A DNA stretch of 64,000 nt from NCBI GenBank assembly GCA_963666055.2, contig CAXWPH010000006.1, positions 64,001 to 128,000 on the forward strand. The letters run 5' to 3'. This DNA is from Acidobacteriota bacterium. GTDB lineage: Bacteria > Acidobacteriota > UBA890 > WLXD01. The position numbers were made by a program, and so were the translations under genes. Positions 2,275 through 62,476 of the stretch are shown here, in pieces; within the stretch, counting starts at the first letter, position 1; the number at the start of each line of letters is the position of its first letter. Below the pieces are notes generated by a model, which was not told the DNA's origin, did not search any database, and saw nothing but the letters and a program-made list of their open reading frames with translations.

Positions 2275-2349
2275 CTAGTGTGCTGTGCGGGAAGCAAATC
2301 GACACTCGTGGCTCCGCAAGGCGGCGAGGTCGAGAAGCAGCAGCACTAG
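2275..2349. mobile_element. degenerate CTAG-bounded miniature inverted-repeat relic (family B)
   Basis: CTAGTGTGCTG...CAGCAGCACTAG, imperfect terminal inverted repeats; internal GCAAGGCG motif shared with the 26141 element. Confidence 0.5.
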
Positions 2350-2513
2350 CAGGCCGTGGTGAAATGGGCCCGGTTGCCAGGCGCGACGACGAGACGATGT
2401 TTGCCCATCGTGGAGGAGGAGCAACGCCGCAGACGGACCCATTTCGCCGCCATCCTCCGGACAAATGGGCAGTTGCGGGCGATATGCAACGATCATCTGT
2501 TACAGACCACTAG
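2346..2513. mobile_element. chimeric miniature element: family-A left end, one structured lobe, family-B right end
   Basis: Starts CTAGCAGGCCGTGGTGAAA (identical to 26141-26159). Internal stem GGTGAAATGGGCCCG/CGGACCCATTTCGCC. Ends ACAGACCACTAG; that CTAG carries the TAG stop of the protease gene. Confidence 0.7.
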
Positions 2514-13656: not shown

Positions 13657-13731
13657 GCCTGGCAGGCCGCCTTGCATCTGACCCCGACTCGCCGTAACCA
13701 GGCCCGCCACACTTTCACCACGGCCTGCTAG
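13657..13731 (-). mobile_element. solo left arm of family-A element
   Basis: Reverse complement matches 26141-26217 with about 4 C/T changes and a small indel near the end; its CTAG holds the stop of 13728..14942. Confidence 0.85.
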
Positions 13732-25139: not shown

Positions 25140-26141
25140 TCACTGCCCCGAAACAAGTGGCCGCGCCGTGGGCGCGGCCTCGGTCGTAGCGCCGCGGGCA
25201 CCAGCGCGGGCCGCATCCAGCGCTTCACGGCCGGTGTATTGGGGTCGGATCCCGAAATGGGTCTTGAGTCGGGTGTTGTCGAGGATCGGCAACCCGGACG
25301 AGAAGCGCAGCTGACGCGCCGGCGACGGTGCCCGCCTGAACAACCACGCAGCCCACGCTAGACCCCAGGCCACTCCCCCGGGAAGTACCGCGCTGGGTCG
25401 CGACAGGGCCCGGCACACCTCAGAAAGGCGCAGCAGGCCGTCGGCGGCCACGTTGTAGGTGCCACCGTGCCGCTCCTGCACTGCCCGCCAGAGAACGTCT
25501 GCGGCGTCGTCCTCGTGAAGAAACTGCAGCATCGGGTCGCGGCGCAGACGTGGGACCAACGGCGTGCGCAGCAGCTCTTCGATGACCCTCACGTTGCGGG
25601 GCCCTATGGTTGTAGCCACGCGGAACACGTAGACGTTCGTCCGACCGTGTACCCCGGCGAACTCACGCACAGCGCGATCTATTGCCGTCTGGTCGTTGGC
25701 CCCTACTGCGGCATCGAGCGCATCGGTCTCCAACCAAGGGCGCCCGTTCGACGACGGTTGCGGGTATGCCGCCGCGCTCCCCCAGTGGATCAGCAGTGGT
25801 ACGCGCACGCTCGCCGCAGCGCGCATCGCGGTATTGGCAAGAGCGAGCCGTCCAGAGCAGTCGAGCGAGTCGGCGCAGAAGTTGACCAGGCACTGTGGTC
25901 GATGCTCGCGTACGGCCGTAGCGACTCCACGCCGGTCTCGGCGTATCTGAAAAACAGCTTCACCCGGCCACCCGGGCGGCTCCTCGGCGCCCACCCCGAC
26001 GGCGTCACCGCCCGCCCCCAGGATCCGCTCTGCGACAAGACCCGCCACCGTATCAAGCGACCCGAACATCATCACCGGGCCTGGTCTGCTGCTGGACTCG
26101 GTCGAGTCCACTGGTGGCTCGGGCCGGAAGCGAGCTGACAC
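25140..26141 (-). CDS. extended SDR / NAD-dependent epimerase-like protein, motifs degenerate
   Basis: GSAAAY, LQFLHEDD.A, GTYNVA, LDNTRLK fold motifs; no GxxGxxG or YxxxK. Confidence 0.75.
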   Translation of the reverse strand: MSARFRPEPPVDSTESSSRPGPVMMFGSLDTVAGLVAERILGAGGDAVGVGAEEPPGWPGEAVFQIRRDRRGVATAVREHRPQCLVNFCADSLDCSGRLALANTAMRAAASVRVPLLIHWGSAAAYPQPSSNGRPWLETDALDAAVGANDQTAIDRAVREFAGVHGRTNVYVFRVATTIGPRNVRVIEELLRTPLVPRLRRDPMLQFLHEDDAADVLWRAVQERHGGTYNVAADGLLRLSEVCRALSRPSAVLPGGVAWGLAWAAWLFRRAPSPARQLRFSSGLPILDNTRLKTHFGIRPQYTGREALDAARAGARGATTEAAPTARPLVSGQ

Positions 26142-26419
26142 TAGCAGGCCGTGGTGAAAGTGTGGTGGGTCTGGTTACGGCGAGTTGGGGCCAGATGCAA
26201 GGCGGCCTGACGCAGGCGATGCCCCGGCCATCGTCCAGGAAGGCCAACACCGCAAATGGCCCCAACTCGCCGTAACCCTTCGGGCGACAGGGGGTTGCGC
26301 GCGTAGGCTGCGTCGTTCCTCGTCAACGATGCGGTAACCATCGCCTCCTCCTCTCTCCTTGCCTGCACTTCGCAAGACCCTGTCGCCAGATCCACCACAC
26401 TTTCACCACGGCCTGCTAG
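26141..26419. mobile_element. complete 279-bp non-autonomous miniature inverted-repeat element (family A)
   Basis: 34-nt terminal inverted repeats including CTAG (33/34 identical); internal 21-bp perfect stem 26173-26193/26257-26277; C-TTCG-G loop; second stem 26283-26292/26378-26387; no ORF of plausible function. Confidence 0.9.
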
Positions 26420-27162
26420 CCGGCGCTCAGCGACGCGCCGCCGTCTACCGGCAGGATGGTGCCAGTTATGTAGTCCGGCGCTTCGGCGAAGAAGAGCACG
26501 CCGCGCGCTACGTCTTCGGGAGTCCCGGCAGACCCCGCTGGCACGCGGGCCAGCACCTCCTCGCGTTCTGCCTCCGACGTTCCCTCGGGGAACAGGATGG
26601 CGCCCGGCGCCACCCCGTTCACCTGTACGCGCGGCGCCAGAGCTTGAGCGCTGCAACGGGTCAGCGCATCGAGACCGCTCTTGGCAACGCAATACGCAGC
26701 GTAGTCCCCGAGTGGATGGATGCCGATGGTGCCGCAAATGTTAACAATGCGGCCCCGGCCCCGCTCCCACATCCGCTCCCCCACCAAGCGAGTGAGCCGG
26801 AAAGGCGCTTCGAGGTTCACGCTGAGATGGTATCGCCAGGTTGTCTCGTCCAGTTCGACGAATGCCCGGCGTTCGAAGACCGCGGCGTTGTTGACCAGCA
26901 GATCAAGCTCGCCGAGCTCGTCCCTGACCGCGTCGACGAGCTCGGTGACCGACCGCGGATTGGTGATGTCTGCCTGCAGCGCCGCCGCTTGCCCTCCGGC
27001 GCTCCGCAACTCCGACACCAGCTCGTTGGCCGGCTGCGCCGATCGCAGGTAATTGACCGCCACCGCGTAGCCTGCGCGCCCCAACGCCGTGCTGATAGCG
27101 CGCCCAACACGGATGGCGCCCCCGGTGACCAAGGCAACACGGTGCGGTGGTGTGGGGGGCAA
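26416..27162 (-). CDS. SDR oxidoreductase, pteridine reductase/FolM-like
   Basis: TGGAIRVG, LLVNNAAVF, YCVAK, VQVNGVAPG, YITGTILPVDGG. Confidence 0.85.
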   Translation of the reverse strand: MPPTPPHRVALVTGGAIRVGRAISTALGRAGYAVAVNYLRSAQPANELVSELRSAGGQAAALQADITNPRSVTELVDAVRDELGELDLLVNNAAVFERRAFVELDETTWRYHLSVNLEAPFRLTRLVGERMWERGRGRIVNICGTIGIHPLGDYAAYCVAKSGLDALTRCSAQALAPRVQVNGVAPGAILFPEGTSEAEREEVLARVPAGSAGTPEDVARGVLFFAEAPDYITGTILPVDGGASLSAG

Positions 27163-27364
27163 GAGTCCCTCTCGGAAGGAACAGCGGCATCAACCAGTCG
27201 TGGTCTCGGGGGCCCCGCGCGGGCCCTGCTGAAGTGTAGTGGCTGGCGAGCGGCCCAGCATACGAGCGCGTCCGTGTCGCGACACATCCGTCACCGCGGC
27301 AAGAGTTAGGATGATCTCTGACCGATCGACCGAGCCCCGTCAACACCATCCACCACCCGCGCCG

Positions 27365-28642
27365 ATGCCTCAAATTGTCGTCTACACCAAGTCGTTCTGC
27401 TCATACTGCAGCTGGGCCAAGAACCTGCTCGCAGCGAAGGGCGTGGAATGGGACGAGATCAACGTCTCGACCGACCCGGCTCGCTTCGCGGAGATGATCG
27501 AGCGCTCCAACGGCCGTGCCACCGCGCCACAGATATTCATCGACGATCTGCACATCGGCGGGTTCGACGAGCTCGCCACGCTCGAGACGCGCGGCGAACT
27601 GGACCCGCTGCTGAGCCCCGACCGCGATGGCCACAACGGCGCCGGGGTTGTGGACGCCGATAGCCCTACCACAACCCCGCAGAAGGAGGTGGCTGAGAGC
27701 CATCGTGAGCTGATCATCGTCGGCTCCGGCTGCGCCGGCCTGACAGCGGCCATCTATAGTGCCCGCGCCAACTTGGCACCGCTGGTGATCACCGGTCGCG
27801 AGCTAGGTGGACAGCTCTACACGACAACGGATGTCGAGAACTTTCCGGGGTTTCCAGACGGCATCCAAGGACCCGACCTCATCGACCGAATGCGGGCGCA
27901 GGCGGAGCGATTCGGCGCCGAGCTCGTGTTCGGTCACGTTGCCAGCCTTCAGCTCAGTGAGCACCCCTTCAGAGTCGTCCTGGAGGGTAGTGTCGAGCAC
28001 ACCTGCGATGCGCTGATCATTGCCACGGGGGCATCGCCAAAAGCCCTGGGTGTACCCGGCGAGATGGAGCTGCGCGGCTACGGCGTCTCCACCTGCGCGA
28101 CGTGCGATGCAGCCTTCTTCCGCGATCGACCCGTAGCGATCGTCGGCGGCGGTGACTCCGCCATGGAAGAGGCGCTGTTCCTCACCAAGTTCGCGTCCTC
28201 GGTGACGCTTCTACACCGACGCGACGAGCTCCGGGCCAGCCCCATCATGGCGGGACGCGTTCTGGAGCACGAGAAGATCGATATCCTGTGGAACACCCAG
28301 GTCGAGGAGTTCGTCGGCACGTCAGAAACGGGACTCACCGGCGTGCGAGTGATCAACAATCAAACTGGTGAGAGTGCTGACCTGCAGGTCGACGGCTGCT
28401 TCATCGCCATCGGTCACGACCCCAACACCGAAGTGCTGGTCGACTGGCCGATCCGGCTCGATGAGCTAGGCTACGTAGCCGACGACGAACGGCCGCTGCC
28501 CAGCACGGCGATCGACGGCGTGTTCGTGGCGGGCGATATTCACGACCACCACTACCGGCAGGCAATCACCGCCGCGGGATATGGCTGCCGCGCCGCCCTC
28601 GATGCCGAAAAGTGGCTCACCAAGAGGCTCATGGGAGCCTGA
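27365..28642 (+). CDS. trxB: glutaredoxin 3 - thioredoxin reductase fusion
   Basis: N-terminal [17 protein letters not shown]...IGGFDEL (Grx), then a linker, then GSGCAG, GGQL, STCATCD, VGGGDSA, HRRD, AGD (TrxB); one open frame. Confidence 0.92.
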
Positions 28643-48456: not shown

Positions 48457-48543
48457 CGTAACCATCGCCTCCTCCTCTCTCCTTGCCTCGACCTCGCAAG
48501 ACCCTGTCGCCAGACCCATCACACTTTCACCACGGCCTGCTAG
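48457..48543 (+). mobile_element. solo right arm of family-A element
   Basis: GTAACCATCGCCTCCTCCTCTCTCCTTGCCT..CGCAAGACCCTGTCGCCAGA..ACACTTTCACCACGGCCTGCTAG, nearly identical to 26334-26419; its CTAG holds the ggt stop. Confidence 0.88.
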
Positions 48544-62432: not shown

Positions 62433-62476
62433 CTACCAGGCCGTGGTAGAAGTGTGGCGGGCCTGGTTACGGCGAA
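62433..62476 (+). mobile_element. degenerate left arm of family-A element
   Basis: CTACCAGGCCGTGGTAGAAGTGTGGCGGGCCTGGTTACGGCGA, directly upstream of the phosphorylase start. Confidence 0.8.

Follow-up and report, generated by a model that had tools for sequence, protein, structure and literature searches.

A CTAG-flanked miniature element between two once-coupled genes of an Acidobacteriota bacterium carries a structured core found in MITEs with unrelated ends

The window analysed here is a stretch of 64,000 nucleotides from an Acidobacteriota genome (G000; contig CAXWPH010000006.1, positions 64,001 to 128,000 of the forward strand). On its minus strand, a gene for a 248-aa short-chain dehydrogenase (SDR; 26416-27162) lies upstream of a gene for a 333-aa protein of the NAD-dependent epimerase/dehydratase family (25140-26141), both assigned from open reading frames and Pfam; the best NCBIfam match of the SDR protein, pteridine reductase, is below its cut-off. 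Between the two genes is a non-coding element of 279 bp, whose bounds (26141-26419) are exactly those given in the original prediction and which consists of 271 bp plus the duplicated CTAG. The C of the left CTAG (26141-26144) supplies the initial base (a G when read on the minus strand) of the GTG start of the epimerase gene, and the minus strand of the right CTAG (26416-26419) contains the TAG with which the SDR gene stops. Elsewhere in the window (27239-28642), a glutaredoxin domain and a thioredoxin-reductase-like domain are joined in one frame.

The terminal arms of the element, described earlier as 34-nt inverted ends, agree at 33 of 34 nt with CTAG counted and at 29 of 30 nt inside the CTAGs, and form a terminal stem below two inner hairpin lobes. 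Each 34-nt arm is made up of the 4-nt target duplication, 17 nt common to an insertion sequence (IS) and a 13-nt inner arm. On the left, the 17-nt terminal repeat (26145-26161, plus strand) is identical to the left end of an IS1182-like element of genome G011, and the inner arm (26162-26174, plus strand) is absent from this IS and nearly identical in a MITE family with IS5-type ends; the right arm (26386-26415, minus strand) likewise joins an inner arm to the 17-nt terminal repeat (26399-26415). Lobe 1 (26173-26277, plus strand), the lower stem of which is fully compensatory across the order, holds the first copy of a core motif (26192-26259, plus strand) with two symmetric tandem-G·A loops and a C·A variant. 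Lobe 2 (26283-26385, minus strand), defined by the fold, holds the second copy (26301-26367, minus strand), which is of the A·G variant and lies on the other strand from copy 1. Folding gave z = -16.0 for the plus strand as RNA, -13.3 for the minus strand as RNA and -13.5 for the plus strand as DNA, and in each of these three settings none of 200 shuffles folded as well as the element. The lobes had been described as joined by a C-UUCG-G loop, a detail that did not hold: CTTCG is unpaired in the plus-strand fold, and the linker (26276-26284, minus strand) reads CCC-NNN-GGG across relatives and C-GAA-G, a GNA triloop type, on the minus strand here. Among 37 linkers, which are related sequences, GNA occurs on one strand in 26, each of the four bases being represented in the middle; 11 are not GNA, and 12 are compatible with UUCG.

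On the minus strand, 26141-26341 comprises a purine-rich run resembling a ribosome site, an ATG and a frame of 66 codons that ends in a stop overlapping the GTG of the epimerase gene. The frame is open in 54 of 81 copies of the same genome versus 6 of 29 relatives. A coding role was rejected, since the frame is not kept in relatives and there is no third-position excess of variation; the frame could re-couple translation by accident.

The original prediction held that the insertion split a translationally coupled gene pair, and the same junction in congeners is consistent with this. In G004, there is no insert and the genes overlap as TAA/ATG, in frame with the epimerase gene, the SDR gene there appearing decayed. 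In G002, a different 279-bp MITE lies between the same flanks at the same CTAG junction, and in G003 the junction carries the remnant of an end of a third family. Given these three states, the coupled pair is supported and the junction was struck more than once. The epimerase gene starts at the same TAR/TG junction in all four congeners, for which reason a start shifted to codon 11 in G003, at its ATG, was rejected. Downstream of the epimerase gene, a PagL-like gene bears an element copy on its stop codon in G004 (L031:1303-1477) and in G008 (L037:1290-1449), and this stop is a second repeatedly hit site in the neighbourhood.

G000 contains 372 ends of this family, forming 105 paired elements, 81 of which are full copies of 265-290 bp, so that the expectation of a non-autonomous element in many copies was confirmed. 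Their median pairwise identity is 94% and no pair is identical; about 20 paired copies have one lobe only, and 11 short palindromic scars are also present. The window itself holds a left-end fragment (13663-13731, minus strand; element positions 1-69), a right-end fragment (48458-48543, plus strand; positions 194-279) and a degenerate left-end fragment (62433-62475, plus strand; positions 1-43). At 11 junctions, a copy is located in the CTAG of the loop of lobe 1. At C11:160026-160413, four 83-bp left-end units and a partial fifth form a tandem array joined at this CTAG, which looks like repeated self-insertion or slippage. By BLAST, the element is present in 23 of 41 genomes including G000: 9 of the 10 genomes of the family, 11 of the 15 of the sister family and 2 of 15 from the rest of the phylum. 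Plasmids and phages gave no element match, with four weak 42-nt hits within an EAL gene, and contigs of four sequencing runs at the locus yielded no joint spanning the whole element.

For an empty-site test, 38 distinct G002 sites were compared with G000; 17 had no clean two-sided orthologue and 21 were usable. Three of the 21 were filled in G000, eight were scored as remnants and ten were without trace. In 4 of the 21, the two flanks meet at one 4-bp site (CTAG twice, CTGG and ACAG); one of these CTAG cases (L068) is counted among the eight remnants, as its flank resembles an end. These empty sites bear out the predicted duplication of CTAG. At the 17 sites lacking a clean orthologue (within L049-L087), frequently just one flank matches, and element copies may perhaps mark rearrangement breakpoints.

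Type II MITEs share just their terminal repeats with an IS, as stated in the sections of PMC10969869 drawn on here and below. The window element resembles them, as portrayed there, in being non-coding, within 50-500 bp, intergenic and folded into a stable stem-loop, with IS-shared ends and a target duplication. Indeed, inverted repeats, a duplication seen from empty sites, the expected copy number and size, a lack of coding capacity and IS similarity confined to the 21-nt ends were all found. We therefore regard it as a MITE with near certainty. It differs from the type II MITEs of those sections in being GC-rich rather than AT-rich, and in that its interior has a covarying motif common to other end families.

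Mobilisation in trans had been predicted, with IS5-type and related elements cited as users of CTAG targets, and a transposase flanked by the same ends was to be sought; the results support a partner of the IS5/IS1182 superfamily. A DUF772 search of the order yielded such a candidate in G011, of the same order, where four identical IS1182-like ISs of 1497 bp each lie between CTAGs; their ends match the MITE ends at 21 of 21 and 20 of 21 nt, and the rest is without significant similarity. The 472-aa transposase, P0001, agrees with the IS1182 family in length (about 450-500 aa) and in its DUF772 plus DDE_Tnp_1_6 domains: it matches DUF772 at 69.4 bits (cut-off 23.1) and DDE_Tnp_1_6 at 21.9 bits (below its cut-off of 25.1), and the best of its six NCBIfam matches is IS1182 (NF033551) at 158.6 bits, below the curated cut-off of 270. 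Judged by its sequence, P0001 would be IS1182-like rather than a tested family member. We propose that the MITE, lying in a duplicated CTAG, would owe its movement to an IS1182-like DDE transposase that acts in trans and has the same 17-nt ends. This transposase may be an occasional visitor: of 26 genomes of the order, one had the P0001 type, and it was not found in G000 or the four congeners searched, with tblastn of P0001 on G000 giving E>2 only. Because it was not found in these genomes, the link between P0001 and the window copy stays a candidate.

No G000 transposase among those examined bears these ends. As movers, the IS5 of G000 (eight copies) was rejected for its TTAA flanks and other ends, the one IS903-like element for its non-matching ends, and the single intact IS630 because its ends fit other MITE families (20/24 and 18/24). 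A 1313-bp end pair in G000 was rejected as an IS, a host gene lying between two separate fragments; three further end pairs span 3.3-3.9 kb. At L097:1327-2745, the transposase gene ends on the TAG within the right CTAG, which makes this IS reliant on its target for its own stop. G007, with 146 DUF772 transposase matches in a 5.1-Mb genome (L089, L110 and others), is a case of extreme IS expansion.

The target had been given as CTAG or TA. At 78 loci of related transposases that we compared, most ends consist of CTAG followed by a similar repeat. Four of these IS loci have coupled non-CTAG direct repeats (ATAG, CCAA, CTAA and TTAG at L132, L182, L183 and L190), two match at 3/4 bases, and three (L129, L151 and L153) have outer-only changes. 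Because the base adjoining the repeat varies, the duplication is 4 bp and the element 271 bp. In G000, 335 of the 372 ends carry the outer C of CTAG, and the MITE pairs with a non-CTAG flank comprise 10 outer-only variants, 3 inner-only variants, 1 coupled 4-bp repeat and 8 others. Taken alone, these G000 variants fit a TA duplication better, as would be expected if the end family were moved by an IS630-type transposase and the terminal G and C were part of the element; moreover, the one intact IS630 of G000 is located at CTAG. However, the ends of the IS630 elements in G000, G002 and G137 correspond to other MITE families and not to the window family, whose ends fit the IS1182-like IS at 21/21; the IS relatives repeat 4 bp, including the TA-less CCAA; and the outer variant at L070 (ATAG) has a CTAG empty site, one case consistent with later change of the flank. 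We infer that the outer-only excess arose from later change at a codon wobble position or from hairpin repair. CTAG is thus favoured over TA, although the MITE flank variants are ambiguous. We hold with strong confidence, from comparison of ends and flanks, that the mover would be IS1182-like with a 4-bp duplication, and we regard movement by an IS630-type transposase as very improbable.

At 46 of 81 copies, compared to 1139 of 4890 other CTAGs, the TAG of the target is the stop codon of a frame of 150 codons or more (Fisher p 1e-10), and a long frame is interrupted at 2 of 81 copies, compared to 1043 of 4890 other CTAGs (Fisher p 2e-6). Element orientation relative to the upstream gene is 30 versus 17 (p 0.08). 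Copies would thus persist mainly where CTAG contains a TAG stop, probably because the duplication restores the stop.

The core, which each lobe of the element holds once and each strand once, is a 68-nt tandem-G·A motif with two-fold symmetry. Along either strand of its hairpin the order is C-R-A-G-G-M, a stem of 5 bp and R-A-C-G-N-N-G, and the two purine-rich loops face one another in two-fold symmetry beneath an apical stem. In 38 core rows, 90.9% of cells are paired with 85 double changes, which none of 500 shuffles reach, and slid controls give 24-52%. A further 42 matches showed 88.4% pairing and 118 double changes, in an alignment (A3) fitted to the model and with related rows inflating the covariation counts. 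At the M·R position, all 40 pattern-selected rows and 40 of the 42 further rows have C·A or A·G, and a G·U pair is kept in 30 of the 38 core rows. C·A and A·G are interchangeable sheared pairs, which form an RNA isosteric family. The core is absent from the IS elements scanned, and the interior of the MITE does not resemble decayed IS sequence; 286 of 290 core hits are adjacent to a MITE end, versus 48 of 1000 random windows.

We considered whether the core is functionless, in which case one ancestral MITE spread from lineage to lineage, its families recombined, and hairpin-templated repair mimicked compensation. Mixed-end chimeras (see below) demonstrate exchange, and a variant in one arm generally has its counterpart in the other (73 of 81 at one site), as repair or descent gives. 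However, hairpin repair would be expected to remove mismatches, but the G·A loops persist while the surrounding stems have been replaced; furthermore, a non-standard pair covaries, and the motif is retained across phyla despite different apical stems. We consider a functionless core improbable. With considerable confidence, if slightly less than for the mover, we take the core to have been selected as a fold, and it likely serves as a conserved protein-docking or protein-binding structure.

In the portion of the archaeal RNase P RNA study used here (PMC5499556), the kink-turn and double kink-turn likewise have two tandem sheared G·A sets with a short helix between them. The core was rejected as a kink-turn by eye on A2 and A3, as its loops are head-to-head and there is no 3-nt bulge by the canonical helix. 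The position of the bulge is filled by a G-C pair, covarying in one loop, and position 2b is C in 27 of 42.

The core is not confined to one end family. In G000, it also lies within MITEs with IS5-type ends, of which 19/21 positions agree with an IS5-like element in G007, and within MITEs with IS630-type ends, which match the G000 IS630 as given above. The same core, in elements of comparable one-lobe and two-lobe size, is present in at least three other G000 MITE families with different ends (C2:102509-102786, C5:147123-147402 and C12:302800-302973; L215-L219). A covariance model of the core gave hits in 36 of 121 Acidobacteriota genomes, in 14 of 61 genomes of the phylum of G139 (Planctomycetota) and, with 52 matches, in G137 (Ca. 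Binatia), with none in four other genomes of that set. Scans of the phyla of G141 (presumably Pseudomonadota; single weak hits in 2 of 101 genomes) and G140 (presumably Chloroflexota; 0 of 51 genomes) double as a false-positive check. The enclosing repeat was located at 20 of 30 loci in one set and 4 of 10 in another; these core elements mostly have CTAG-type bounds, contain one or two lobes and represent at least eight end types. One-lobe elements are about 165-180 bp long, and two-lobe elements mostly 274-292 bp, with a few up to 361 bp. In G137, 165-bp core-bearing MITEs and six IS630 copies have identical 22-nt ends. Four of these six copies (L278, L281, L282 and L283) abut a same-ended MITE at a shared CTAG.

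How the core might pass between end types is suggested by elements with two different ends, which make up 4 of 110 paired elements of G000. One of them is 279 bp long and switches inside the shared interior. Another lies in the window (2346-2513, plus strand; 168 bp), where a left end of IS1182 type meets, at a short word common to both parts, the single-core interior and the right end from an IS630-type MITE. We infer that recombination through the shared interior would let MITE families trade ends and carry the core between end types, the chimeras being possibly assembly errors. More speculatively, and in our view rather doubtfully, the 68-nt module could be a second-level selfish unit, a novel fold recognised by a dimeric factor that certain phyla possess, boosting the MITEs that carry it and hopping among IS1182-like, IS5-like and IS630 ends by recombination; if so, the chimera at 2346-2513 would represent an unfinished exchange of ends.

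HUH enzymes recognise strand-specific hairpins, and G137 encodes Y1 domains; the core might accordingly be a REP/REPIN-like unit that a Y1 (RAYT-type) nuclease moves in the form of single-stranded DNA, with the IS ends as bystanders. The GTAG/CGTC REPs and REPINs served by RAYTs are likewise dispersed extragenic palindromes with strand-specific folds, as described in part of PMC3733652. In contrast to that system, none of five order genomes (G000, G002, G004, G007 and G011) has a Y1_Tnp match, and the boundaries lie at IS-type ends and the CTAG duplication, not at the core; the four Y1 loci of G137 are also without a core hit. We consider such movement extremely improbable, and return to a core carried within IS-type ends.

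A core selected as a single-strand fold could act on either DNA or RNA. As RNA, it could bind protein or allow RNase III-type processing or stabilisation of host or element transcripts, making insertions tolerable, and the two opposed lobes would put one motif into RNA in either landing orientation. The motif is strand-specific, its tandem G·A loops and conserved G·U pair suit RNA equally well, and the C·A/A·G exchange agrees with the RNA isosteric family. Two-lobe copies are also somewhat enriched between convergent genes (22 of 83, versus 708 of 4512 gene pairs), and against the DNA reading there is no replichore bias (best split 29/49, p 0.91). In addition, co-transcripts that include Correia or ERIC copies can be cleaved by RNase III or RNase E (PMC10969869, in the sections cited above). 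However, one-lobe copies bear a single motif, and a role in host mRNA therefore predicts a strand bias among them, whereas they were indifferent to the transcribed strand, with 8 sense and 10 antisense in G000 and 4 versus 5 among 15 G137 loci, in tests that are small and based on a home-made gene caller. The element has no U-tract or promoter-like site, one hit lying elsewhere in 25900-26700 versus 0.4 expected, and so lacks the GC-rich stem followed by a U-tract of an intrinsic terminator. The suggestion that it acts as a terminator or processing site was thus not supported. Furthermore, Rfam returned no match at gathering score for the element (10 loci), with sub-threshold matches only, mostly to generic hairpins, and the linker is GNA and not UUCG. 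GCGNAGC-type mini-hairpins are unusually stable as DNA, their RNA counterpart being much less so, according to the part of PMC13037366 used here.

Together, the GNA linker, the lack of strand bias and the lack of a U-tract or promoter lean towards a DNA-level role in the spread of the element. We put selection of the core as RNA as unlikely, though of real weight. That the core acts on DNA for the element's own spread is a tentative reading whose chances fall just short of even. In our proposal, the core would be selected as a single-strand fold that benefits the element and not the host transcript, with DNA more likely than RNA. The full account, in which a CTAG MITE moved in trans carries a conserved core that docks a protein on single-stranded DNA, appears to us evenly balanced between right and wrong.

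The element as a MITE is ordinary; the conserved core is the unusual part. Common to MITEs with unrelated ends and missed by the original prediction, the core is the notable feature of this family. Correia/NEMIS elements and ERIC duplicate TA, and RUP is tied to IS630. For Correia/NEMIS and ERIC, we know of no core shared across transposase families. Identical ends, a CTAG target and 4-bp repeats in IS relatives liken the element to the IS1182/IS5 superfamily (DUF772 plus DDE), the MITE itself being without transposase. ISPsy36 of the IS1182 family has GGCC as its target in the passages of PMC8027508 consulted, unlike the CTAG here. In the same sections of PMC10969869, Correia/NEMIS (Neisseria) and ERIC (enterobacteria) are likewise abundant structured MITEs beside genes, but no promoter-like site was found in the window element; RUP, BOX and SPRITE of Streptococcus pneumoniae cluster and insert into each other there, as do the copies at the 11 lobe-1-loop junctions here. 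SPRITE is terminator-like, whereas the window element has no U-tract. The main text of a large MITE survey (PMC11602168) mentions neither IS1182 nor CTAG, and its supplementary catalogue may list copies; in the literature covered, which included few subscription journals and not ISfinder, the family and its core are undescribed.

A transposase requires nothing but the ends; that a single structured centre has nevertheless been kept across phyla and unrelated end types points to a further partner and to an additional step in the spread or tolerance of non-autonomous elements. New here are a transposase with identical ends, the argument for 4 bp over TA, the mixed-end chimeras and the tests leaning towards DNA. 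The question is now testable, with P0001 named, the motif defined pair by pair and natural end-swap intermediates given.

For annotation, these repeats lie on a stop codon in over half of the full copies, and they break short-read assemblies. With a rough gene caller, TAG is the stop of 1630 of 4527 G000 genes, 687 of them as CTAG, and CTAG overall occurs at 0.63 of expectation, figures that could be the footprint of long CTAG-targeting activity.
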